From positions 1 to 60,388 of the forward strand of contig CAMCZA010000001.1 of assembly GCA_945885515.1 (NCBI GenBank): 60,388 bases of DNA, in the 5' to 3' direction. The notes under the pieces are model-generated. The model worked only from the letters and a program-made list of their open reading frames with translations, was not told where the DNA came from and did not search any database. This document shows positions 3,968-58,624 of this stretch, in pieces. Numbering within the stretch: position 1 is the stretch's first letter; each line of letters begins with the position of its first letter. The stretch comes from Ferrithrix thermotolerans DSM 19514. GTDB taxonomy: Bacteria > Actinomycetota > Acidimicrobiia > Acidimicrobiales > Ilumatobacteraceae. Made by a program: the position numbers and the translations under genes.

Positions 3968-6900
3968 ATGGTTGATTATGCCGAATTGCATTGTCGATCA
4001 AACTTTTCGTTTTTATACGGGGCTTCACATCCTGAGCAACTTGTCGAGTCGGCAGTTGATAATCAGTTGAGTGCGCTTGCGCTGACCGATCGCAACGGAT
4101 TTTATGGTGTCGTAAAGTTCGCCCAAGCGGCTCGCGGGTTTGGGCTGCCAACTTTGTTTGGTGTTGAACTGACTTGTTCTAATCAGCACAGTGATACCAG
4201 CAGCAGTGATCCACAAATTGTTTTGATCGCTGATGGTCAATCTGGTTATTCGCGACTATCGCATGCGATAACTATTGGCCAGTTAGCGGGCTCAAAGTCT
4301 GCACCTGTTTTTGATACGGCAAAAATCGCCGAAGATGTGGCTGGTCAATGTTGGGTCTTGACGGGAGCAAGTAGTGGCATAGTCAATCAAGCGCTCGAAC
4401 AACACGGACCAGAGGCGGCTTCGCGTCGGTTGCAAAAACTCGTTAGCGAATTCGGTCGCGACCGAGTGTTGGTCGAATTATGTGATCATGGCGACCCACT
4501 TGATTCAACACGCAACGATGCACTCGTGCAGTTGGCGATGCGAAATAATTTGCAGTGTGTTGCCACTAACGATGTCAGTTATGCATCGCTACGTGAGTAT
4601 CGGCTAGCAGTTGCGCTGGCAGCAGTTAGGCAACGCGCAAGTCTTGACGAGATTGATATTCATTTGCCCCCTGCTCCAAGTGCATATATTCGTAGCGGCA
4701 AAGAGCAGCTTCGGCGGTTTCGTCGGTATCCGGGGGTCATCGAACTGACAGGCGAGATAGCAAAATTATCGGCGTTTGATTTGTCTTTAGTTGCGCCGAA
4801 ACTTCCACCGTTTATTTGCCCAGATGGATTAGATGAAATTTCATATTTGCGTTTACTCGCCGAACAAGGAGCAACTCGCAGATATGGGTCGCGACCTGTG
4901 AGCAACATTGAAGATCTTTCGTTGCGCGCCAGAGCATGGAAGACGATTGATAACGAACTAAATGTCATTGAGCGACTTGGGTTTGCCGGCTATTTCTTGG
5001 TCGTTTGGGACATCGTGCGGTTTTGTCAGCGTTCAAATATATTTTGTCAAGGTCGGGGAAGCGCGGCCAACAGCGCGGTTTGCTTTGCCCTAGATATAAC
5101 CAAAGCCGATGCCGTTTCGCTGGGTTTGTTGTTTGAGCGATTCTTATCGACTGAGCGTGATGGCCCACCAGATATCGATATAGATATTGAAAGCGGACGG
5201 CGAGAAGAAGTTATTCAATATGTTTTCAACCGCTACGACCGACATCATGCCGCACAAGTTGCCAATGTGATCACATATCGCTCACGCTCGGCAATTCGCG
5301 ATATGGCCAGGGCGCTTGGTTTTGCTCCGGGTCAGCAAGACGCATGGAGCAAGCAAGTCGGAATGTTTGGCTCACTGTCAAACTCTGAAAACACACAACA
5401 TGAAATACCGACCCAAGTAGTAGATCTTGCTCGCCAAGTTTTAGACGCACCACGACATTTAGGCGTTCACTCTGGGGGCATGGTGATTTGTGATCGCCCC
5501 GTCAGTGAAGTTTGTCCTGTTGAGTGGGCACGAATGAAAGATCGCAGTGTGTTGCAATGGGATAAAGACGACTGCGCAACGATTGGTCTTGTCAAGTTCG
5601 ATTTACTCGGTCTAGGAATGCTTTCTGCGCTACATAACGCGGTTGATTTAATTGCCGAATTTCGTGGTGAAAAAATTGATTTGGCAACGATTCCACAAGA
5701 AGACGAGGTCTATTCAATGTTGTGTCGTGCTGACACAGTTGGCGTTTTTCAAATCGAGTCGCGCGCCCAAATGGCAACACTGCCAAGACTCAAACCAAGA
5801 AGGTTTTATGACCTGGTCGTTGAAGTCGCGCTAATTCGTCCTGGCCCAATTCAGGGAGGTTCAGTTCATCCATATATTCGTCGTCGCAATGGTCAAGAAC
5901 CAGTGACTTATTTACATCCACTATTAGAAAACAGTTTAGGAAAAACACTGGGCGTGCCGTTGTTTCAAGAACAGTTAATGCAAATGGCAATTGACGTCGC
6001 AGGTTTCACTGCTACTCAAGCCGACGAGTTGCGTCAAGCGATGGGTTCAAAGCGTTCGCAGGTGCGCATGGAGCGACTTCGTCAGCGACTATATGACGGC
6101 ATGTCAAAACATGGGATCATTGGCACGGTTGCCGATGAGATTTTTGAAAAAATGCAAGCGTTTTCTAGTTATGGGTTTCCTGAAAGTCATTCTGTTTCGT
6201 TTGCATATCTTGTTTATGCCTCTTCATGGATCAAATATCACGAACCTGCTGCGTTTTATGCGGCACTATTAAATTCGCAACCGATGGGTTTTTGGTCGCC
6301 GCATTCGCTTGTGCAAGATGCTCGCCGACATGGTGTTGTAGTTCATGGCCCAGATTTAAATGCATCCAAAGCCGGCGCAACTTTAGAACCGTGTCACGAG
6401 TCAACTGGCGGGTTCGCGGTGCGACTCGGAATCTCCGGTGTGCGTGGTGTTGGCTACGAACTGGCATGCACAATAGAAACAGCGCGGCCTTTTGCAAATA
6501 TGGAAGACCTCGTGCGTCGAGTACCGCAACTGAATCTCTCACAGATTGAAACACTGGCAACAGCAGGTGTCTATACACAATGTTTTGGCATATCTCGGCG
6601 AGATGCATTGTGGTCAGCAGGTGCAGTAATCCAAAGTCGCCCAGATCGTCTTGCTGGGGTTACTACGGGCAGCGATTCACCCCAATTGCCTGGCATGCAA
6701 CCAATTGAAGAGTCAATTTGTGATCTTTGGTCAACAGGTATTTCTGTTGATGGGCATCCAACTCAGTTCGTGCGCAGTCAGTTGAGCAAACTTGGTGTGC
6801 TTACGGCGAGCGAACTGCCAAATGTCGAAAATGGCTCACGAATATTTATAGGTGGTGTTGTTACGCATCGACAACGCCCGTCAACTGCACGGGGTGTGAC

Positions 6901-9491: not shown

Positions 9492-10469
9492 TTAAGCGGG
9501 TAAAAGTAGCGCTTCTTGGCGATTTGCGATGAACCACTTAATTGTTTCGCCTAGACCTTCTTCAAAATTCATTGTCGCACGCCATCCAAGTTCGCGCTCG
9601 GCACGAGACGCATCGACGCGTCGTCGGGGTTGACCGTCTGGTCGTGATGAATCCCAAACGAGTTCACCTGTAAACCCGACGATACGAGCAATCGTCTCGG
9701 CAGTTTCGCGAATCGTAATTTCGCGGTTGTTGCCAAGATTCAGTGGCTCACTCGAGTCGTGCAGTTCTGCTGCCAACAAAATTGCTCGTGCGGCATCTTT
9801 GACATATAAATAGTCTCGACTCGCCGAGCCAGTGCCCCAAACATCAATTTTCTCAAGGCCTTGTTCTTTTGCTTCCACACATTTTTTGATCAGCGCCGGA
9901 ATCACATGTGAGACATCCGGATGGAATTTATCTCCTGGTCCAAATAAATTCGTCGGAATCAAAAATGCAAAACGCTGACCATATTGTTGGGCGTTCACTT
10001 GTGCGTGAACAAGCAACGCTTTTTTGGCGATGCCGTATGGGGCATTCGTTTCTTCCGGGTAGCCGTCCCAAATTGATTCTTCCCGAAACGGCACCGGAGT
10101 AAATTTTGGATAACTGCACACGGTGCCGAGTAGAACTGTTTTTTCAACACCGGTCATGCGGGCTGCTTCGATTGTGTTGGTTCCCATCATCAAGTTGTCA
10201 AGATAAAGCGGAGCAGGAGCAATTTGGTTGTAGCCGATTCCGCCGACTCGCGCCGCCAGATGTACGACGTGACTTGGTTTATGTTTCGCAAATAGCTCAA
10301 GGGCAACGCCAGGCTGAGTTAGATCTGCTTCGCTTCGACGGGGCGCAATAACTTTGGCGCCTGCTTGGTTGAAAGCATCCACAACATTTCGTCCGAGAAA
10401 CCCGTTTCCACCAGTTACGACGACGACACGATCATTCCAAAATTTCGTAAATGAAGATCTTTCACTCAT
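9492..10469 (-). CDS. fcl: GDP-L-fucose synthase (GDP-4-keto-6-deoxymannose 3,5-epimerase/4-reductase)
   Basis: VVVTGGNGFLGRNV Rossmann motif and YGIAKK (YxxxK). A gmd gene is in the same region. Confidence 0.8.
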   Translation of the reverse strand: MSERSSFTKFWNDRVVVVTGGNGFLGRNVVDAFNQAGAKVIAPRRSEADLTQPGVALELFAKHKPSHVVHLAARVGGIGYNQIAPAPLYLDNLMMGTNTIEAARMTGVEKTVLLGTVCSYPKFTPVPFREESIWDGYPEETNAPYGIAKKALLVHAQVNAQQYGQRFAFLIPTNLFGPGDKFHPDVSHVIPALIKKCVEAKEQGLEKIDVWGTGSASRDYLYVKDAARAILLAAELHDSSEPLNLGNNREITIRETAETIARIVGFTGELVWDSSRPDGQPRRRVDASRAERELGWRATMNFEEGLGETIKWFIANRQEALLLPA

Positions 10470-49057: not shown

Positions 49058-50137
49058 ATGAAAGCTGCAGTCTGTCGCGAGTTTGGCAAGCCACTTGTAA
49101 TTGAAGAAGTCACATTAGCTAAACCGCAGGCAGGTGAGCTACGAATAAAAATTTTGGCGACGGCTATTTGCCACAGTGATATTTCCTACGCCGATGGTGC
49201 GTGGGGTGGAACCTTGCCGGCAATTTTTGGCCATGAAAGCGTAGGCATTGTTGAAGAAATTGGCGCTGGTGTAACTCATGTAAAAGTTGGCGACCAAGTC
49301 GTCGTGACCCTGATTCGTTCATGCGGCCATTGTCGGGGTTGCTCTCGTGGAATGCCGGTTACTTGTGAGACTTCGTTTCCGCTTGACGCCAAGAGCCCGC
49401 TTACTTCAAAATCAGGTGAGTCGATTGTTCAAGCAATGCGCACGGGCAGTTTTGCCGAGTATGTCGTTGTTGAAAGTTCGCAAGTTGTCGTTATCTCGAA
49501 AGATATTAAAGCCGCGAGTGGATCGCTACTTGCATGTGGTGTGATCACAGGTTTTGGGGCGGTTACGAATACCGCAAAAGTTGAAGCCGGGAGTCATGTT
49601 GTCGTAATTGGTGCAGGTGGAGTCGGGCTCAACTCGGTGCAGGGCGCACGCATCAGTGGTGCACGATCAATTATTGCTGTTGACTTGTCGGATACAAAAA
49701 TCGAAGCGGCTAAAAGCTTCGGCGCAACTCACGGCATTAACTCCGGCAAAGAAGATGTTGCAAAGCGCGTTTTGAGCATTACCGATGGTCGTGGTGCTGA
49801 TTATGTATTCGTAACGGTTGGCGCCAAGCAAGCATTCGACTCGTCGTATGGTTTGCTCGCCAAATCTGGCACGGTCGTTTTGGTTGGTATGCCTGCCAAC
49901 GGTGTGATGTCAGAGATCGACCCAGGAACGATGGCGGCATATAGCCAAAATATTCTTGGCTCAAAAATGGGCTCAGCACGTATTCAGGTCGATATCCCGA
50001 ACTTGATTTCGCTATACGAGCAAGGTCGACTCAAACTAGATGAACTAGTGACCAAGACTTATAAGTTAGAAGAAATCAATGAAGCAATTGCTGCTGTCAA
50101 GCGTGGCGATGCATTACGAAATGTGATTGTTTTCTAG
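49058..50137 (+). CDS. Zinc-dependent alcohol dehydrogenase (class III-like MDR)
   Basis: CHSD, GHESVG, structural-zinc CGHCRGCSRG, and GAGGVGL. Confidence 0.85.
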   Translation: MKAAVCREFGKPLVIEEVTLAKPQAGELRIKILATAICHSDISYADGAWGGTLPAIFGHESVGIVEEIGAGVTHVKVGDQVVVTLIRSCGHCRGCSRGMPVTCETSFPLDAKSPLTSKSGESIVQAMRTGSFAEYVVVESSQVVVISKDIKAASGSLLACGVITGFGAVTNTAKVEAGSHVVVIGAGGVGLNSVQGARISGARSIIAVDLSDTKIEAAKSFGATHGINSGKEDVAKRVLSITDGRGADYVFVTVGAKQAFDSSYGLLAKSGTVVLVGMPANGVMSEIDPGTMAAYSQNILGSKMGSARIQVDIPNLISLYEQGRLKLDELVTKTYKLEEINEAIAAVKRGDALRNVIVF

Positions 50138-50170
50138 AGATATAAGAAACATAAATAGATCGGCGGGGTC

Positions 50171-51376
50171 ATGAAAATAGAAAAAATTCAAACGTTTGTT
50201 GTCGGCAATCCACCACCGCGCACAGGTGGTCGTTATTTTATTTTCGTAAAATTAACAACTGATACTGGCGTCACCGGTATTGGTGAGATTTATACCGCGA
50301 CTTACTCGCCGCAAATTGTTTGCAAAGTCGCAGAAGATATGTTTGCTCGTTACATTTTTGGCACCGATCCATTTCATATCGAAAAAATGTGGCGTCGAAC
50401 TTATGGTTCGGGTTTCGCGCACCGCCCAGACTTCAGCACGGCTGGCGTCGTCAGCGGTTTAGAAATGGCGATGTGGGATATTTGTGGCAAAGACACCGGC
50501 AAGCCTGTTTACGAGTTGCTCGGCGGTCAAGTTCACGACCGGTTGCGTTGCTATACGTATTTATATCCATCACATGAGTTTGATGCGCACTCTGATCATC
50601 CGCTTTACACCGATCCAGATCTTGCCGCTGAGGCTGCCGTTCGCGAAGTTGAGCGAGGTTTTACCGCGGTAAAACTAGACCCTGCTGGGCCGTATTCGGT
50701 TTTTGATGGACGTCAGCCGTCGCTTGCAACGATTGATCGTAGCGTGCGAATGGTTGCTGCAATTCGCAAAGCAGTTGGCAATCGCGCCGATATTTTGTTT
50801 GGCACGCACGGTCAGTTCACGGCTTCTGGTGCGATTCGTTTGGCAAAACAACTTGAGCCTTACGACCCGATGTGGTTCGAAGAGCCGATTCCACCTGACG
50901 CCCCAGAAGAAATGGCCAAAGTCGCAGCGCATACAAGTATTCCGATTGCAACTGGTGAACGGCTCACTTCAAAGTACGAGTTCGCACATTTGTTGCGCGT
51001 CGGCGGTGCGTCGATTATTCAGTTGGCGACTGGGCGTTGCGGTGGAATTCTTGAAGGCAAAAAGATTGCATCAATTGCCGAGACATATCATGCGCAAATT
51101 GCTCCGCATCTTTACTGCGGACCGATTGAAGGTGCGGCGAATATTCAATTGAGTACTTGCACACCAAACTTTTTGATTCTTGAGAGCATTCAAGACTGGG
51201 GTGGTTTTCACGCCAAGATTTTAAAGAAGCCGATTCAATTTGAAAACGGTTATGTCATCCCGTCTAAAGAACCTGGACTCGGCGTCGAGTTGAATGAAGA
51301 AGTCGCACTCGCACATCCATACACGGGCACTGATCTGCATCTCAACGAGCGTCAAACCCCTGCCGACCTAAGTTAA
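50171..51376 (+). CDS. Enolase-superfamily sugar-acid dehydratase (galactonate dehydratase/mandelate racemase-like)
   Basis: GIGEIY..., MAMWDICGKDTGKPVYELLGG, WFEEP, ATGER. 401 aa. Confidence 0.8.
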   Translation: MKIEKIQTFVVGNPPPRTGGRYFIFVKLTTDTGVTGIGEIYTATYSPQIVCKVAEDMFARYIFGTDPFHIEKMWRRTYGSGFAHRPDFSTAGVVSGLEMAMWDICGKDTGKPVYELLGGQVHDRLRCYTYLYPSHEFDAHSDHPLYTDPDLAAEAAVREVERGFTAVKLDPAGPYSVFDGRQPSLATIDRSVRMVAAIRKAVGNRADILFGTHGQFTASGAIRLAKQLEPYDPMWFEEPIPPDAPEEMAKVAAHTSIPIATGERLTSKYEFAHLLRVGGASIIQLATGRCGGILEGKKIASIAETYHAQIAPHLYCGPIEGAANIQLSTCTPNFLILESIQDWGGFHAKILKKPIQFENGYVIPSKEPGLGVELNEEVALAHPYTGTDLHLNERQTPADLS

Positions 51377-51399
51377 CTCCACACACTTTGGCGTCTGAC

Positions 51400-53037
51400 T
51401 TATAAGACTTTTATTGTCCTGGTGTGATAGCCAGTTGCGCCGTCTGGGTCTGGTCGACTGACTTCCTGCGTTTGAGTTGCGCCAGTTTTGTCGGTAGCGC
51501 GAACTTGAATTTCGTATTCACCCGGTTGGAGATTTGATTCATATTTCCATTGCCGCCAGGTGTCAATATTCAAGTCGAGTGCAAGAGTTGCAAGTTTCCA
51601 TTCTCCAGCATCAATTCGTACTTCAACTTTTTCGATTCCGCGCTGTTGTGCCCAGGCGACACCGGCAATTGCAATCTTTCCTGCGACGACATTCTCGTCT
51701 CGGCGGGGCACATCAATTCGTGACTGTGTTTTGATCGGCGCATCACGCGACCATCCGAGCGGAATCCAATATCCTTCGGCTTGGTTCCACATCGTCAAGT
51801 CGATGCTCTTGAGCCACTTAGTTGCACTGACATACCCATAAAGTCCAGGGACAATTAATCGCACAGGGTACCCGTGTTCAAGGGGCAGTGCAGTACCGTT
51901 CATGCCGATCGCGATCATCGCATCGCGTCCATCAACTGCTGCACCAACCGGGAACCCGCAAGTCCAGCCATCAACGCTGGTGTTGAAGATTTGTTCTGCT
52001 CGCGAGTCGACACCTGCTTCGTCGAGTAAATCGGCTAGAAGTACACCTTGCCAAATCGCATTACCGATATATGGTCCACCGACTTCATTAGAAACACAAC
52101 AGATAGTTATTGTGCGCTCGACCATTGGTCGTGCAAGCAAGTCTTGATAAGACAGCGTCAGCGGTGTTTTAACCATTCCGCCAATTTCAAGTTTCCAAGT
52201 GTTGATATCAACTCTTGGTAATGACAATGCCGTATCAATTCGATAAAAATCTTTATTTGGCGTCACAAATGGCGTTTGCTCAAAAATCTGTGTCGCGGAA
52301 GGAATCTTCGTAGTCGGCAGAACCGTGTTGTTGCCTATTGGTGGCAACGACTGCGGTGCTGCATCACGAACCTGAGAAATTTTTTTACTGCTAACTACGC
52401 TGGCCGTGCCAGCCAATGCCGTTGAGATGATGGCGACTTTTCCTGTTGTGGACAAGAATCGTCGGCGATCCCACCCGAGTGGCGCGCGAGATGTGGTGGG
52501 TGTTTCAAGGGGTTTGCTATTTTCATTAATCACGCAAATTAATTTTGTGAGCAACCAGCATCCCGCAAGTGCGCCAACGAGACTGGGCAATAGCGCGGCA
52601 GCGTTTTGTGACGGTCGAAGCAGAGAAATTATTGCTCCGACGACACCGAATCCTGCGATGATGCTGGCACCAGCGATTCTTCGACGCCTTGCAATTGAGC
52701 CGGCTAAAAGTGCGAGACACGAGACAGTTAGCAGCATGCCTGTTTTGAGTGCGGCCTTATTGTTTGTGGCAAAAATACGGATGGCGAAATTTTTCAACCA
52801 CTTTGGCGTGTGATCAATGAACTCACCACCGATGGCATTTAATGGTGTCTCGACATTGATAATCACTGCGATAAGAGTGGCAATAGATAAAGCAAAGAGC
52901 GCCGAAATGAGCCCCGCAATAGGTGCTGTCCAAATTGGTGCTTGAAAACTTTGTTTTTGTGGGGCAGATCGGTCAATCTCGGGTTGATAAACCGCACTGC
53001 TCGGCACTTTATTGAAAATGTTTATAGAACGAAGCAT
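51400..53037 (-). CDS. Membrane-anchored molybdopterin-dependent (sulfite-oxidase-fold) oxidoreductase
   Basis: About 5 N-terminal TM segments, then a SUOX-like domain with TICCVSNEVGG (candidate Mo-ligand Cys) and a C-terminal Ig-like domain. Confidence 0.7.
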   Translation of the reverse strand: MLRSINIFNKVPSSAVYQPEIDRSAPQKQSFQAPIWTAPIAGLISALFALSIATLIAVIINVETPLNAIGGEFIDHTPKWLKNFAIRIFATNNKAALKTGMLLTVSCLALLAGSIARRRRIAGASIIAGFGVVGAIISLLRPSQNAAALLPSLVGALAGCWLLTKLICVINENSKPLETPTTSRAPLGWDRRRFLSTTGKVAIISTALAGTASVVSSKKISQVRDAAPQSLPPIGNNTVLPTTKIPSATQIFEQTPFVTPNKDFYRIDTALSLPRVDINTWKLEIGGMVKTPLTLSYQDLLARPMVERTITICCVSNEVGGPYIGNAIWQGVLLADLLDEAGVDSRAEQIFNTSVDGWTCGFPVGAAVDGRDAMIAIGMNGTALPLEHGYPVRLIVPGLYGYVSATKWLKSIDLTMWNQAEGYWIPLGWSRDAPIKTQSRIDVPRRDENVVAGKIAIAGVAWAQQRGIEKVEVRIDAGEWKLATLALDLNIDTWRQWKYESNLQPGEYEIQVRATDKTGATQTQEVSRPDPDGATGYHTRTIKVL

Positions 53038-53070
53038 AGTTAGTTGGCGATTGATCAGCCAAGGGATACC

Positions 53071-53154
53071 GTGCAGTCAGTGAATAACTTTGCAATCGTT
53101 GCCCATCACACTCATCATCACGTGCATCACGTGACACGACGGGCTCATTTGTAA
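53071..53154 (+). CDS. His-rich leader peptide ORF VQSVNNFAIVAHHTHHHVHHVTRRAHL (alternative start GTG 53080)
   Basis: AAGGGA at 53061-53066. Seven His codons fall within nine codons at 53104-53130. Stop TAA at 53152-53154. The ORF is too short for the supplied track. Confidence 0.6.
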   Translation: MQSVNNFAIVAHHTHHHVHHVTRRAHL

Positions 53155-53188
53155 CGCTTCAAATTTAATTTCGAAGTTCAGCCCGTCG
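53137..53188 (+). promoter_or_regulatory. Candidate antiterminator: CGACGGGCT (53137-53145) pairs perfectly with AGCCCGTCG (53180-53188)
   Basis: 9/9 Watson-Crick complementarity read directly. The 3' arm overlaps the terminator 5' arm. Confidence 0.55.
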
Positions 53189-53208
53189 GTTCGCCCGGCG
53201 GGTTTTTT
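53182..53208 (+). terminator. Intrinsic terminator: CCCGTCGG-ttcgc-CCGGCGGG followed by TTTTTT
   Basis: 8-bp GC-rich stem with one G-U pair, a 5-nt loop and a U6 tract at 53203-53208. Confidence 0.7.
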
Positions 53209-53240
53209 ATTTATACCCACTTTTGATCAGGAGATATCCA

Positions 53241-53321
53241 ATGAAAACAGAGAAAGCACAAGAAATTGATTTTGAGAAACTAAATGGCTTGGTGCCCGCA
53301 GTAATTCAAGATTCAAAATAG
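53241..53321 (+). pseudogene. hisI: hisI (phosphoribosyl-AMP cyclohydrolase) 5' remnant: 26 codons then TAG
   Basis: AGGAG lies 7 nt upstream. MKTEKAQEIDFEKLNGLVPAVIQDSK matches the conserved HisI N-terminus (ELDWEKtDGLmPvIVQ...). No continuation appears in any frame, and a convergent SDR gene follows. Confidence 0.65.
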
Positions 53322-53339
53322 TCTTTTCGGTCGCAAGAT

Positions 53340-54125
53340 CTAACGGGGAATTGTCGACATCACCATGTCGACAATTCTTTGTGGTGCCCCGCTAAGAATT
53401 GGATAGATCTTTCCACGAAGCGGCAGGCAAACATGTCTACGATTTTTTTCTATCGCACGACGAACATTGCGTGCCACCCGCTCGCGAGAAACCTCCGGCA
53501 GTAATTGTAATTTTTGTAGTCGCTTAAACATTTTGAATGTTGCTTCAACTTGATACACACCGGCCAACATGTCTGTTGGTATCGGACCAATTTCAACTAG
53601 CGTCATGCCTATTGGGGTGCCGTGCAGTTCGTGGCGTAATACGCGATGAAAACCCGATAGCCCAGACTTTGAGGATGAATAGAGAGTCATACCAACAAAT
53701 CCACCACTTGCGGCCAAAGAAGAAATATTAACAATGTGGCCATTTTGCCGTTGGCGCATACCAACCAGAACTTGACGAGTTAAGTCAATTGGCGTGATTT
53801 GGTTAGTAATAATTACTTGGCGAATATCGTCGCTCGTTGCGTCTTGCAATAATCCAGTGTGGTCGACGCCTGCATTATTTATAAGTACATCAATTGGCCC
53901 GTGCTCTGATTCAATTTTTTTAATCAACGACGAGACCGCGTTCAAATCAGACAAGTCACAACATACACAGGTGCCACCAATTGGGTGCATGGCTAGTTCT
54001 AATCGTTGAATATCACGGGCAACACCAATTATCTTTGCCCCTGCACGAGACAGCTCAATTGCGATCGCTTCGCCAATTCCGCGTGAAGCGCCAGTGACAA
54101 GAACGGTTTTATTTTTTAAATCCAT
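53340..54125 (-). CDS. Short-chain dehydrogenase/reductase (start taken at ATG 54125; the ORF track extends to 54209)
   Basis: MDLKNKTVLVTGASRGIGEAIA, NNAG, and YSSSK (YxxxK). Confidence 0.85.
   Translation of the reverse strand: MDLKNKTVLVTGASRGIGEAIAIELSRAGAKIIGVARDIQRLELAMHPIGGTCVCCDLSDLNAVSSLIKKIESEHGPIDVLINNAGVDHTGLLQDATSDDIRQVIITNQITPIDLTRQVLVGMRQRQNGHIVNISSLAASGGFVGMTLYSSSKSGLSGFHRVLRHELHGTPIGMTLVEIGPIPTDMLAGVYQVEATFKMFKRLQKLQLLPEVSRERVARNVRRAIEKNRRHVCLPLRGKIYPILSGAPQRIVDMVMSTIPR
53348..53377. repeat. Perfect 13-bp palindromic hairpin GAATTGTCGACAT-cacc-ATGTCGACAATTC inside the last codons of the SDR gene
   Basis: Read directly. It starts 27 nt after the hisI-stub stop and is followed by TTTGT on the plus strand. 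Confidence 0.85.
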
Positions 54126-54140
54126 ACTTTTGAATCGTAT

Positions 54141-55472
54141 ATGGCTAAAGATGAGCCATCGTGCCCCCGTTGTATATCTGACCGTGAGTCTGCAGTTCGT
54201 TGCTGGCATCTGATTGGTGTAACACTCGTATCGGTGAATTCTTCAATCCAAACGAGTGGAATTCGACCGAGTGAACTTCTTGCGATCCGACCGTTTCGTC
54301 TGCTGTGGATCAACAGTTTTCTGTTCATACTTGTGCAGAGCACCCAGCGTTTCGCATTTGTCTGGTTAGCACTTGAATTAGGCGCCAAGTCAGACATCAG
54401 TGGACTGATTCTTTTCGTCATGGGTATTCCGGTGTTATTAATTTCTTTACCGATAGGCGTGATGAGCGATCACATGAATCGGCGCACGCTACTTATGGTC
54501 AGCCAACTTGGTGCGTTGGTAATCACAACTGTGGTTGCAGTAATGGTGACGGCCCAGCAGATGACGGTCAACCGGGCGATCATCGGATCATTTATTGCTG
54601 GCATATTTATCGCAATCGGTTCGCCGGTGCGTTCGGCAATTGTTCCAACGGTTGTGCCCCAAGACAAACTTGTCGGCGCAATTGCGGTCAATACAATCGG
54701 CAGCAATCTTGGGCTAATGATTGGTCCTGCAACTGCGGGCCCGGCGATTGCGATTTGGGGGATTGAAGGCGCATTCTGGATTCAAGCACTATTGAACCTT
54801 TTTGGGTTTTTTGCTTTGATCAATTTAAAACTTCCAGCGACTCTGAATACACAGCGTCGGCGACTGCGCGAAGAAATATTTGGTGGGCTCACATTTATTG
54901 GTGGGCATGCAGAAGTGCGATCGTTTTATGTCTTACTCAGTGGTTCGATTTTATTTATGATGGCGCCGTGGATCGTTCTTGGTCCGCAGCTTGCCAAAGA
55001 ACAAGTAGGCGCGACGGGCAGTCAGACGACATATATGTTTGCGATGCTTGGGCTGGGTCAGTTCGTTACATCTATCGGAATTCTGCGGTACAACCACAAA
55101 ATGGTGCAAAAAGGAATGTGGTTTATTGGTGGTTTGTGTTGGGGGTCGTTGGTGCAAATCGTGCTCGGTCAGTCAAGTTCGCTCCTGATGATGAGTGTGC
55201 TGTTGTTTGCGTGGGGAGTGGGCGGTGGTTTCTATATGAATTTGAGTCAGACTCTGATTCAGAACAACACACCACCACAAGTAATGGGACGCGTTATGGC
55301 GGTGCACTCACTAATAATGTCCGGGCTTGCGCCGATCGGTGCCCTCATTGTTGGAGTGATTGCGCGTCGAGTTGATTCTGCTCCGATGACATTTTCAGTT
55401 ACTGGTTTATTGATGTTGGTGACGGCGGTTTATTTCTTGGTTGTCAAGAAAAATCTGCGAGCAATGTCGTAA
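54141..55472 (+). CDS. MFS transporter (EntS/MFS_3-like); the true start is possibly GTG 54234
   Basis: RPFRLLWINSFL at the N-terminus and about 12 TM segments. Confidence 0.75.
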   Translation: MAKDEPSCPRCISDRESAVRCWHLIGVTLVSVNSSIQTSGIRPSELLAIRPFRLLWINSFLFILVQSTQRFAFVWLALELGAKSDISGLILFVMGIPVLLISLPIGVMSDHMNRRTLLMVSQLGALVITTVVAVMVTAQQMTVNRAIIGSFIAGIFIAIGSPVRSAIVPTVVPQDKLVGAIAVNTIGSNLGLMIGPATAGPAIAIWGIEGAFWIQALLNLFGFFALINLKLPATLNTQRRRLREEIFGGLTFIGGHAEVRSFYVLLSGSILFMMAPWIVLGPQLAKEQVGATGSQTTYMFAMLGLGQFVTSIGILRYNHKMVQKGMWFIGGLCWGSLVQIVLGQSSSLLMMSVLLFAWGVGGGFYMNLSQTLIQNNTPPQVMGRVMAVHSLIMSGLAPIGALIVGVIARRVDSAPMTFSVTGLLMLVTAVYFLVVKKNLRAMS

Positions 55473-55482
55473 ACTCATCGTC

Positions 55483-55842
55483 ATGACAATTTCATTTAGG
55501 GCAGGCGAAATCTCCGCGGCAGAACTTGCTGCAAAACCACTCGGACAACCATCGGCAGAGCCGCTGACTGGCGAGATCATGACACGAGCGAAAGTTTTTT
55601 TAGACAATGAAACTGTCACGGCTGGTACATGGGAGTGTGAAGTCGGTGCGTCTCGCTGGGAGTTCACCACACGCGGCGAAGTTATTTATGTTCTATCGGG
55701 CCGGATGACAGTGCATGAAGACGGTGGAGATGCCGTTGAACTCACTGCTGGTTCGAGTTGCATCTTTCCGATTGGATGGAAAGGCAAGTGGACCGTTCAC
55801 GAAACTCTACGAAAAGTTTTCGTCGTCTACCGTACGAACTAG
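55483..55842 (+). CDS. Cupin_3 (DUF861) domain protein
   Basis: GTWECEVGASRWEFTTRGEVIYVLSGRMTV...AGSSCIFPIGWKGKWTVHETLRKVFVVY. ATG 55483 follows the MFS stop. Confidence 0.7.
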   Translation: MTISFRAGEISAAELAAKPLGQPSAEPLTGEIMTRAKVFLDNETVTAGTWECEVGASRWEFTTRGEVIYVLSGRMTVHEDGGDAVELTAGSSCIFPIGWKGKWTVHETLRKVFVVYRTN

Positions 55843-55850
55843 CTTTTTAT

Positions 55851-57434
55851 TTAATCAACGAGTACGCGGATGAATTGTGGTCCACCGTGCGAAAATGCAG
55901 TTCGCAAAGCATCTGATAGTTGTTGCGGAGTTTTCACTTCGGTAGCAGTCCAGCCAAAACCACGGGCGATTGCAGATGGATCATGCGACGAAACATTGAC
56001 ACCAATTTGTGGTGCTTGAACCTCATCGAATGATTCGCGGATTTGTTCGTAACCGCTGTTGTCCCACAACACAAGGACAATGTTGCAGTTCATGTCTTGC
56101 GCTGCCGCCATCTCGGCAACCGTAAATAGCCAACCGCCATCGCCAGCGATTACTAAAACTGGTCGCTGTGGTGCTGCGATGCTTGCACCAATCGCCATTG
56201 GTAGTGCACAGCCCAAAGTGCCGAACCCATATGGGGCGAGCCACGACCGAGACTGCGTTGCTGGCAACCACCAATGCGCGCTATAACCCAATTGCGTTGA
56301 GTCAAGTGCGACGATTGCGTCAGTCGGCAGTTCATTTTCGATTGCTATTAGCCACGGTACAAAACTTTGACTCGTTTTTTTGCGCGCATGTTCACGCCAA
56401 GTGTGGGCACGAGTTGCCCCTTCTTGACGCGCGTGCGACTTAATTCCGATAGTCAGCGCCTGCATCGTAAGTGCCGCATCGCCAACAAGTCCAACTTTCG
56501 GGGTAGTTCGTCGCGTCATTTGTTGCGGATCAATATCGATGCGAATCACTTTCCCAGAAAAGTTTAAAGCCCGACCATTGTTGTAAAGATCTGTATCCGA
56601 GAGCTCTGTGCCGACAACCAATACGACATCTGATGCTTCAACATCGCGTTGGACTCGACCGAACACAAGACAGTTGCCTGCACATAACTGGTGAGACGAT
56701 GAGATCACACCTTTGGCATTGCCCGTTAGAAGTACTGGCGCATTCAAAGCTTCAGCTAGCGCTATTAGTTGTGTCGCCGCGTCAATGGTGCCACCGCCAG
56801 CGATTATCACGGGACTCTGTGCAGAGTTAAAAATTTCAAGTGCTTGCGAAATCTCTGTTGTTGCTGCTGCTGTGCGCTTTAGAGATGTATCAACGCGAGT
56901 AAATATCTCGCAAGTTTGAGCAAGAATATCCATCGGAATCGCAATGTGTACTGGCCGAGGTCGCGCAGAAGTAAAAACATTCCATGCACGCTCAATTAGC
57001 GCCGGTAACTGAGTTATATCGGTGACAGTTTCGCTGAACGCGCAAATAGATCTGACAAGTTCTGCTTGATCAGGTAAATCGTGCAACGGACCAAAACTTT
57101 TTCCGAGCGCATCAGTCGGGGTGGTTGATGCCAACACGAGCATCGCTCGCGAGTCGTGATACGCCTGAGCGATTGGCGTCATCACATTGGTGATTCCTGG
57201 TCCACTAATTAAAACGCAGACTCCAGGTCGACCAGTGACGATCGACCAACCGTCGGCCATGAACCCAGCACCTTGCTCGTGTCGTGGCGAAACTGCGCGC
57301 ACACCCGAGCGATGCAGACCGCGATAAAGCTCGATGTTGTGCACCCCCGGTATGCCAAAAACAACATCAACCCCGTATTCGCAGGCGAGCAATTCAACAA
57401 TCGCCTCGCCAACTCGAAGTTGTGGGCTAGACAT
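55851..57434 (-). CDS. Thiamine-diphosphate-dependent 2-oxoacid decarboxylase/acetolactate-synthase-like enzyme (possibly the AruI-like 5-guanidino-2-oxopentanoate decarboxylase family)
   Basis: FGIPGVHNIELY, PRHEQGAGFMADGW, and ThDP motif GDGGWLF...NIVLVLWDNSGY. 527 aa. Confidence 0.75.
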   Translation of the reverse strand: MSSPQLRVGEAIVELLACEYGVDVVFGIPGVHNIELYRGLHRSGVRAVSPRHEQGAGFMADGWSIVTGRPGVCVLISGPGITNVMTPIAQAYHDSRAMLVLASTTPTDALGKSFGPLHDLPDQAELVRSICAFSETVTDITQLPALIERAWNVFTSARPRPVHIAIPMDILAQTCEIFTRVDTSLKRTAAATTEISQALEIFNSAQSPVIIAGGGTIDAATQLIALAEALNAPVLLTGNAKGVISSSHQLCAGNCLVFGRVQRDVEASDVVLVVGTELSDTDLYNNGRALNFSGKVIRIDIDPQQMTRRTTPKVGLVGDAALTMQALTIGIKSHARQEGATRAHTWREHARKKTSQSFVPWLIAIENELPTDAIVALDSTQLGYSAHWWLPATQSRSWLAPYGFGTLGCALPMAIGASIAAPQRPVLVIAGDGGWLFTVAEMAAAQDMNCNIVLVLWDNSGYEQIRESFDEVQAPQIGVNVSSHDPSAIARGFGWTATEVKTPQQLSDALRTAFSHGGPQFIRVLVD

Positions 57435-57439
57435 CTGAA

Positions 57440-58624
57440 TTAATTCGCAGTCGCAATTAGTTTTTCGGCTAGTTGCCGGATGCGGCTACATGCATCTTTT
57501 AAAATTTCAGATTCAACTGTTAGTGCGATCCGAATATGTCCGGCACCACCATTACCAAAACTTTCGCCAGGCATCACACTGACATTATGTTGATTTAGAA
57601 GTTGCCATGCAAATTCTTCGCCGGATAATTTTGTCTTGCGCACGTCAAGCATCACGAACATACCGCCCTCGGGCATACGTGCGCTGATCACTTTTGACCC
57701 AGCGAAAGACTTGATTAATGTTTCTGCGCGTTCACGAAATGCAAGACGCAATCGTTCAACCTCTGGATGTTGCTCATTTAATGCGACCGCGAGCGCGTCT
57801 TCTAAGAACGGTTGTGATCCAAATAACATCGCTTCTGCCACCAGAGTCAGTCGTGGAATCACATCTTGGTGACACGCAACCCAACCTGCGCGAAAACCTG
57901 GCAGGGCATGCGATTTAGAGATAGACGACACCGCAAGTGTGCGATCACGCAGGTGCGGTCGATCAAACGGCGAGCAAAATGGGGCGTCGTAAGTCATGTC
58001 TGCGTATACCTCATCGCAGATGATCCATAAATCATGGCGTTCGCAGACCTCGCCGATCGCGTCTATCTCACTGACTGATAACACAGCACCTGTCGGATTA
58101 CTTGGCGTGTTAAGCAGCAGAACTTTCGTACGTGAAGTAATTGCGTTTTCAATTGATTGTGCTGTGACGTGAAAATTATTTTCAGGCAATGTTGCGACTG
58201 ATACAAAAGTTGCGCCAGATGCCGCAACCAGGCCTTCGTAAGTTGCATAATACGGATCGGGAACGAGTACTTCATCGCCAACTTGTACGAGCGTCAGCAA
58301 CGCGGTGCACAATCCATTTTGTGTGCCAGCTGTGTATAGAACTTGTTCGGGTGTGACGAGAAGCCCGGAGCGTTTGGTTAAGTGATTTGCGATTGCCTGC
58401 AATGCTTCGGGTTCGCCCTGACCGTGTGCATAGCGAGTGCGACCTTGACGCATCGCAGTTGCGGCTTTGTTGATCACACTTGCTGGTGGTGGCAAATCAG
58501 GTTCGCCGATTGATAAAAGAATTATTTCTTCACCTAAACCTGAACGGCGTAAACCTTCGGCATGAACAGCCCATTTAGCCGCACCCAATCCTGCGAGTCG
58601 ATCAGTGATTGGCGCAAACTTCAT
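57440..58624 (-). CDS. Class I/II pyridoxal-phosphate aminotransferase (AspC/AruH-like)
   Basis: NTPSNPTG, and SISKSHALPGFRAG (PLP lysine). 394 aa. Lies 5 nt upstream of the ThDP enzyme gene. Confidence 0.85.
   Translation of the reverse strand: MKFAPITDRLAGLGAAKWAVHAEGLRRSGLGEEIILLSIGEPDLPPPASVINKAATAMRQGRTRYAHGQGEPEALQAIANHLTKRSGLLVTPEQVLYTAGTQNGLCTALLTLVQVGDEVLVPDPYYATYEGLVAASGATFVSVATLPENNFHVTAQSIENAITSRTKVLLLNTPSNPTGAVLSVSEIDAIGEVCERHDLWIICDEVYADMTYDAPFCSPFDRPHLRDRTLAVSSISKSHALPGFRAGWVACHQDVIPRLTLVAEAMLFGSQPFLEDALAVALNEQHPEVERLRLAFRERAETLIKSFAGSKVISARMPEGGMFVMLDVRKTKLSGEEFAWQLLNQHNVSVMPGESFGNGGAGHIRIALTVESEILKDACSRIRQLAEKLIATAN

Follow-up and report, generated by a model that had tools for sequence, protein, structure and literature searches.

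Among described regulators of histidine (his) operons, the closest counterpart of the element reported here is the hisL leader of Salmonella and Escherichia coli (RF00514), which it resembles in having a short open reading frame (ORF) of His codons, mutually exclusive antiterminator and terminator helices, a logic of ribosome stalling versus run-through and a location 5' of a his operon. The his regulation known in Actinobacteria is the T-box of Corynebacterium glutamicum hisDCB (RF00230), which is alike in sensing the charging of His-tRNA by transcription attenuation in an actinobacterial host. A T-box lacks a leader ORF and acts by binding the tRNA itself. The present element lies in contig CAMCZA010000001.1, of which a stretch of 60,388 nucleotides (nt) was analysed as a whole and is called the window below; it is very probably a leader-peptide his attenuator of an uncatalogued family that stands before hisI-first operons and has been orphaned here by a deletion of ∼6.2 kb.

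Classical attenuation does operate in Actinobacteria, for which Seliverstov et al. (2005; PMC1262725) described leader-peptide attenuators of trp, ilv, leu, trpS and leuS and found no conserved RNA structure upstream of the histidine operons. A comparison of upstream regions by Ashniev et al. (2022; PMC9413887) yielded candidate His attenuators in the Bacillus cereus group, Peptostreptococcaceae and Erysipelotrichales; that study gives T-boxes for Actinobacteria and attenuators for Proteobacteria, reports new attenuators in Firmicutes only, proposes that an operon and its attenuator were transferred as a unit and makes no mention of Acidobacteria or Acidimicrobiia. The Firmicutes attenuators and the present element are alike in being lineage-specific leader peptides that RF00514 misses, and differ in phyla and in sequences. 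Predicted acidobacterial attenuators are mostly without assigned functions (Naville and Gautheret; PMC2965389). No published description of the element was found in the searchable literature, a conference paper by Korolev et al. (2015; cited in PMC4833913) lying outside its coverage; an earlier note on this DNA, made from the letters alone, had likewise been unaware of any his attenuator in front of hisI in Actinobacteria.

A search with Rfam 15, whose His_leader model the same note had proposed as a check, gave no family matching the window at gathering score; RF00514 had no match at E ≤ 10 in 52900–53400 and none at gathering score in 20 related loci, and no sequence or structure homology to it is detectable. 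The element differs from RF00514 in standing before hisI and not before hisG at the head of hisGDCBHAFI, in the interruption of its His codons (HHTHHHVHH, compared with seven in a row in the enterobacterial leader), in a compact four-segment layout where the enterobacterial one follows a six-segment A–F scheme, and in its hosts, which are Acidobacteriota and Acidimicrobiia. A T-box reading was rejected because RF00230 matched neither in the window nor, at E ≤ 10, in 52900–53400. Weak Rfam matches to sroD, anti-hemB and RybB are terminator look-alikes only.

The leader ORF (Table 1) has candidate GTG starts at 53071 and 53080 and encodes VQSVNNFAIVAHHTHHHVHHVTRRAHL, with His at seven of the nine codons in 53104–53130. 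Seven His per nine codons is a single occurrence across all six frames of the window, and the maximum in 100 random windows from a first-order Markov model was 4–5, so that the run exceeds chance. The AAGGGA at 53061–53066, both GTG codons, the TAA at 53152–53154 and the His run had all been read correctly in the earlier note. The His/Val codons build a CACGUG palindrome hairpin (Table 1), which is a possible pause hairpin. The leaders of loci L002 (∼5750–5790) and L009 (∼1036–1080) repeat the 9-nt unit CATCACGTG (His-His-Val) once more, which adds two His codons and one more arm for this hairpin; the copy number of the sensor region therefore varies.

Downstream of the His run, CGACGGGCT (53137–53145) is the exact reverse complement of AGCCCGTCG (53180–53188), and the two can form a perfect 9-bp antiterminator helix. 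The latter sequence is at the same time the 5' arm of an intrinsic terminator with the stem CCCGTCGG/CCGGCGGG and the tract TTTTTT (53203–53208), the first two T of which double as the last two bases of the stem. The shared arm makes the two helices mutually exclusive. The calculated stabilities are comparable, at −16.7 kcal/mol for the terminator hairpin and −19.4 kcal/mol for the antiterminator region (53134–53191), and the 53137–53145/53180–53188 helix becomes the minimum free energy (MFE) structure when the 3' arm is withheld or untranscribed. The complementarity, the GC hairpin and the T6 tract that the earlier note had described are thus present where it put them, and in the folding that it suggested the two exclusive structures come out close in energy. 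The segment 53090–53215 as a whole has an MFE of −38.3 kcal/mol (z = −4.0), equalled by none of 200 shuffles. An independent scan agrees with the remark that this is the only canonical terminator in the 60 kb: no other compact GC stem in the window is both perfect and followed by T6, the remaining candidates being imperfect.

The leader TAA lies 7 nt past the antiterminator 5' arm (segment 2). In the MFE structures the GCCC of segment 1, a proposed anti-antiterminator, pairs with GGGC in segment 2, the His codons lying between the two arms. Acidobacterial members of the family described below have longer equivalents of segment 1 (GYCGCCCG), and the putative pairing of segments 1 and 2 is clearer there. 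A test for conservation of this pairing gave 96% paired compared with 84% in shuffles, a control that did not discriminate.

Conservation of the element was assessed in a family scan with the HisI of relatives as query and one genome per species, which yielded eight freshwater Acidimicrobiia and 72 Acidobacteriota (Bryobacteraceae, Solibacter and Terriglobia). A His-rich short ORF precedes hisI in 75 of the 80 regions. Simple criteria recovered this ORF together with a U-run hairpin of the form GCCCGYCG...CGGYGGGC in 73 of the 80, both located in the interval that separates hisI from the gene before it, and several of the seven other genomes are picked up by a covariance model. That model, R1, was built here and is not curated; it comprises the His codons, a CGRCGGGC core near the leader stop and the GCCCGYCG...CGGYGGGC terminator with its U-run. 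It finds one match in the 60 kb (53110–53212, 73.1 bits; the window is itself a seed sequence) and scores 54–76 bits on the non-seed members L078, L089, L092, L093 and L095, with L078, L093 and L095 at 54–63 bits. Further Acidimicrobiia lineages that carry the element are represented by L093 and by L095/L096 (GCA_007279905.1, leader VKSFAHNSHHHVHHVSRRALV).

Structure statistics were taken from an alignment (A1) of 69 elements, of which 66 are distinct. The terminator helix is paired in 86% of cells, and RNAalifold predicts the same stem independently. Over the 66 distinct sequences the antiterminator helix is paired in 71%, compared with 28–49% in registers slid by 1–3 columns, and its covariation score of 0.142 was attained by one of 500 shuffles; columns 67/113 covary between U-A and G-C, and columns 61/119 hold either A-U or G-C. 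Conservation of the His run and of the alternative pairings among relatives, which the earlier note had named as a check, is thus present, with covariation.

In every one of the 69 members the leader stop falls between −13 and +7 nt relative to the CGGGC core, a geometry that matches the proposal in the note that a ribosome at the stop would mask the antiterminator arm. The core is read as Arg-Arg-Ala in 56 of the 69, as Thr-Gly-stop in five, and overlaps or follows the stop in eight; since it is kept in differing frame relations, the constraint is on the RNA and the ribosome geometry and not on the peptide. This bears on a rival reading in which the product of the short ORF, a His-rich peptide that might for instance bind metal, is what functions and the RNA pairings are incidental. 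The ORF is indeed conserved and His-rich, but with the core in other frames or after the stop in 13 of the 69 members, with length and sequence outside the His run varying freely, and with an element that is always directly upstream of the his operon with the terminator between, such a peptide is very unlikely to be the explanation.

The anatomy, read in the light of the attenuation model established for the trp and his operons, leads us to infer classical attenuation as the mechanism, and the ribosome positions, the dependence on His and the promoter belong to the same inferred scheme. Transcription would start shortly upstream of 53071 and a ribosome would translate the leader. When His-tRNA is scarce, the ribosome would stall at the His codons (53104–53130), covering segment 1 (53101–53104) and the His-codon hairpin and leaving segment 2 (53137–53145) free to pair with segment 3 (53180–53188), so that the terminator would be blocked and RNA polymerase would continue. 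When His-tRNA is plentiful, the ribosome would reach the TAA (53152–53154) and mask segment 2, and with no ribosome segments 1 and 2 would pair; in either case segments 3 and 4 would terminate transcription at about 53208.

What follows the terminator in the window is a hisI stub and not a gene. The earlier note had placed hisI at 53241 and expected readthrough to reach it; the N-terminus is HisI-like, as it supposed, but the frame stops after 26 codons, and with the rest of the operon deleted readthrough has no hisI to reach. The stub's TAG (53319–53321) is the former stop codon of hisA. By blastn, window 50003–53317 aligns on one side of the his operon of relatives and 53312–55472 on the other, the two segments overlapping in the heptanucleotide TTCAAAA, which is common to hisI codons 24–26 and the last codons of hisA. 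The junction joins ...CAAGATTCAAAA to TAGTCTTTTCGG, where a relative has ...CAAGATTCGAAGACTCGCC in hisI and ...CTCAGTTCAAAATAAGTTTTGCG at the end of hisA. The missing ∼6.2 kb runs from hisI codon 27 through the last hisA codon. The blastn placement and the three-way junction comparison therefore indicate a deletion of ∼6.2 kb within a TTCAAAA direct repeat, which left hisI codon 26 followed in frame by the stop codon of hisA. The 3' end of the convergent short-chain dehydrogenase gene, which in relatives comes directly after hisA, begins 18 nt beyond the stub's stop.

The reading in which an intact hisI at 53241 is under the control of a functioning attenuator is refuted by the sequence and can be given next to no credence. 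The ATG, the AGGAGA Shine–Dalgarno sequence, the HisI-like N-terminus, the leader and both alternative structures are all in place for it; yet the ORF ends after 26 codons, with the end of the convergent dehydrogenase 18 nt on, relatives have a 132-residue HisI and six further genes at this site, and the truncation recurs in four other assemblies. Apart from the stub, no other his gene or HisI-like sequence was found in the window with the proteins of relatives as queries. Searches by tblastn with E. coli and Mycobacterium tuberculosis HisI sequences also gave no further hisI in the window, and were insensitive enough to miss even the stub.

As the source is a metagenome assembly, the junction might have been created by misassembly or chimerism, in which case the full operon would be present in the real genome. 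Three further contigs, each from another sample, show the identical junction, namely L001 (ERZ27280301), L088 (ERZ27247897) and L090 (JGI Ga0208960), as does the assembly of the window itself; ERZ27280301 k141_238546 and JGI Ga0208960_1022935 are among the contigs of this population. Because of this recurrence it is not considered an assembly artefact; a 7-nt repeat is moreover far below assembler k-mer sizes, and both flanks are syntenic with relatives. The probability of an artefact is accordingly put as very small.

The intact arrangement is seen in relatives whose orthologues of the left-flank oxidoreductase are 72–75% identical to that of the window. In these the same flanking genes enclose a complete operon, hisI-hisG-hisD::hisC-hisB-hisH-hisF-hisA (names checked by NCBIfam), with the oxidoreductase, an MR_MLE enolase-family gene, a zinc-type alcohol dehydrogenase (ADH_N/ADH_zinc_N) and others on one side and the short-chain dehydrogenase, a major facilitator superfamily (MFS) transporter and a thiamine pyrophosphate (TPP) enzyme on the other. 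They have the same leader, for example VQAVNNFAIVAHHNHHHVHHVTRRAQL, and the same arrangement of CGACGGGCU...AGCCCGUCGG...CCGGCGGGU-U6, and the leader/terminator core is almost invariant among them in flanking DNA that is 70–80% identical. In the intact relative L086 the leader region is at 9889–10060. In the closest relatives hisD and hisC are fused into one gene encoding 768 residues (L086 6285–8591; L002 2039–4345); in the other Acidimicrobiia L093 and L095 they are separate. Judged from these alignments, the switch stands before the his operon that it would control in the relatives, and in the window the regulated operon is deleted and the switch is orphaned at this one locus. With the his operon deleted, it would therefore regulate nothing biosynthetic here.

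The positions of the individual features are collected in Table 1.

Table 1. Coordinates (window numbering) of the attenuator, the deletion scar and the neighbouring features.
Feature	Position	Strand	Basis or remark
Shine–Dalgarno-like AAGGGA, serves leader ORF	53061..53066	+	Sequence; purine-rich block conserved across clade
Leader ORF, 27 codons + TAA (53152–53154), 8 His	53071..53154	+	Homologous His-rich leaders in relatives
Segment 1, GCCC (Ala-His codons), proposed anti-antiterminator	53101..53104	+	MFE structures
Hairpin from His/Val codons, CACGUG-CAU-CACGUG	53118..53134	+	About −8 kcal/mol
Segment 2, antiterminator 5' arm CGACGGGCU (Arg-Arg-Ala codons)	53137..53145	+	Exact complement of 53180–53188
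Segments 3 + 4, intrinsic terminator AGCCCGUCGG-UUCGC-CCGGCGGGUU	53180..53208	+	Energy, scan, RNAalifold
C-to-U site in segment 3 with its pairing partners	53186, 53139, 53198		A1 columns 119/142 and 61/119
Shine–Dalgarno AGGAGA of former hisI	53229..53234	+	Sequence; conserved in relatives
hisI stub MKTEKAQEIDFEKLNGLVPAVIQDSK, 26 codons + TAG (53319–53321)	53241..53321	+	85% identical to residues 1–26 of the 132-residue HisI of relatives
Deletion junction, 7-nt microhomology TTCAAAA	53312..53318	+	Overlapping blastn segments; three-way alignment with L086
Retained intergenic spacer between hisA and short-chain dehydrogenase gene	53322..53339	.	Aligns with L086 just 3' of hisA
Convergent short-chain dehydrogenase, right flank	53340..54209	-	Pfam adh_short; L086/L087 synteny
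Putative weak promoter TTGAAA-17-CATAGT	53012..53040	+	9/12 consensus match
Membrane-anchored molybdopterin oxidoreductase, 545 residues, conserved synteny anchor	51400..53037	-	Pfam Oxidored_molyb, E = 3e-43

The gene order hisI-hisG-hisD and the attenuator are common to Acidimicrobiia and Acidobacteriota. Compared over 287 residues, the HisG encoded by the Acidimicrobiia operon matches its acidobacterial counterparts at 77.7% (median) to 82.6% identity (tblastn against the acidobacterial loci), and in a PDB comparison it reaches only 80 bits with M. tuberculosis HisG (1NH7). The loci behind the acidobacterial-type comparison are L086 (3642–9888) and L013 and L015–L085 (from ∼3001 onward). 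In the HisG homologue search the matches listed were all at least 86% identical and from the same actinobacterial group, for which reason the comparison across phyla was made by tblastn and with the PDB. The operon and its attenuator have probably been exchanged between the two phyla by horizontal transfer; the greater diversity in Acidobacteriota suggests that these may have been the donors.

The homologues of the oxidoreductase belong to metagenome-assembled genomes (MAGs) that were submitted under the names Ilumatobacteraceae, Acidimicrobiaceae or Actinobacteria, and by sequence comparison the host is a freshwater member of the Acidimicrobiia of the Ilumatobacteraceae type. The actinobacterial context supposed in the earlier note therefore holds for the host; what has to be qualified is the view of the element as an actinobacterial novelty, the operon and attenuator being of acidobacterial type and probably transferred. 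L006, L007 and L009 are lake MAGs with the locus that are titled 'Ferrithrix thermotolerans DSM 19514' and group with the Ilumatobacteraceae-type freshwater MAGs; these titles are probably a labelling artefact of submission.

Several points weigh against the interpretation as an orphaned attenuator or limit its reach. In most acidobacterial members the antiterminator is interrupted in its middle by an A·C mismatch. Segment 3 of the Acidimicrobiia carries a U at a position where Acidobacteria have a C, which gives the antiterminator an A-U pair in place of A·C and leaves a U·G pair in the terminator; this single substitution therefore shifts the balance towards antitermination. The pairing of segments 1 and 2 is short in the clade of the window, consisting of 4 bp and the His-codon hairpin. 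The promoter is a weak consensus match only. The word 'orphan', as justified by the sequences compared, covers this locus only. The relic, finally, is without sequence decay.

With regard to the promoter, the sequence that the earlier note had given at 53012–53040 is present, and statistical support for it is missing: seven promoter-like 9/12 matches were found compared with 7.9 expected in shuffles, that is, no enrichment. The −10 hexamer CATAGT (53035–53040) contains CAT, the start codon of the divergent molybdoenzyme ORF, so that both the promoter and the 5' region of this ORF must occupy, on the opposite strand, the same DNA as the leader/attenuator. CATAGT is invariant in the clade, a conservation that is confounded by coding on the other strand.

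The lack of decay is seen in the loci L090 (97.4% identity) and L088 (98%), which share the deletion and have no difference from the window in the 373 nt of 52997–53369. The neighbouring genes differ by 2–2.7% (6.4% at third codon positions). A tract that diverged at the average rate would be expected to show about 9–11 differences, and one that followed third positions about 20 or more. The absence of decay could mean a retained function, and the invariant tract could reflect constraint, on the divergent promoter or on a role of the switch, or a recent recombination tract.

A second, independent deletion of the his operon is present in a sister lineage (L092 355–680; JGI Ga0194035_1008619). 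There hisI codons 1–27 run in frame into the final 37 codons of hisA, forming a 64-residue ORF; the leader and the terminator are intact (76 bits with R1), the dehydrogenase gene is missing and the MFS gene comes directly next. The left breakpoints of the two deletions (window 53310–53321; L092 ∼555–570) are 3–5 nt apart, after hisI codons 26 and 27, and the right breakpoints differ. If breakpoints were uniform over ∼6.2 kb, the chance of such closeness would be ∼0.002. The breakpoint site in relatives contains TTCGAA and GAAGAC, and a hot spot or a result of selection are candidate readings. L092 is also a mosaic: on the right of the his locus it matches the window at 93% identity (window 54196–57840, L092 699–4343), on the left at only 77% (window 52781–53317, L092 19–562), which indicates that lineages have recombined around this locus.

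These observations are those on which a retained or newly gained function of the orphan under selection would rest, be it as a small transcript that responds to histidine starvation, as conditional antisense readthrough into the dehydrogenase and MFS genes, as an insulating terminator or as the carrier of the promoter or operator of the divergent molybdoenzyme gene. The identity of 52997–53369 among L090, L088 and the window, the intactness of all structural parts and the sparing of leader, terminator and a 27-codon stub by the independent L092 deletion all fit it. However, the strains compared amount to about two independent lineages; in a clade that does recombine, the pattern would look no different after a recent recombination event or a sweep by the deletion allele; the promoter of the divergent gene within the tract explains constraint with no role for the attenuator; and leaderless deletions would be invisible to the pattern search, which introduces an ascertainment bias. 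A retained function is thus regarded as unlikely, at perhaps a modest minority of the total probability. Doubtful to a greater degree is the more specific proposal that the orphan has been selected since the loss of the operon, for example as a switch that senses His-tRNA, together with a recurrent deletion hot spot in hisI that preserves the sensor. Such a selected switch could gate antisense transcription into the convergent dehydrogenase and transporter genes or could yield a regulatory small RNA.

The favoured reading, a his attenuator left behind by the loss of its operon, invites comparison with the gene losses linked to auxotrophy in streamlined freshwater bacterioplankton. The likeness lies in the loss of a whole biosynthetic operon, apparently more than once in the clade; the difference is that the scar, the microhomology and the surviving regulatory element are directly readable here, the auxotrophy itself being only putative.

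The family to which the element belongs spans a large part of the Acidobacteriota and a group of abundant freshwater Acidimicrobiia, phyla in which almost no attenuators have assigned functions and, in the case of Actinobacteria, in which an earlier survey had found no RNA regulator of his genes. It offers a clear example of a biosynthetic operon that apparently moved between phyla with its cis-regulatory switch. For annotators the locus is also a warning that the gene under control need not be intact where the attenuator in front of it looks so. For the planktonic lineage it preserves a base-by-base record of the loss of an amino-acid operon, with at least two independent losses, which is relevant to genome streamlining and to the dependencies that auxotrophy drives in lakes.

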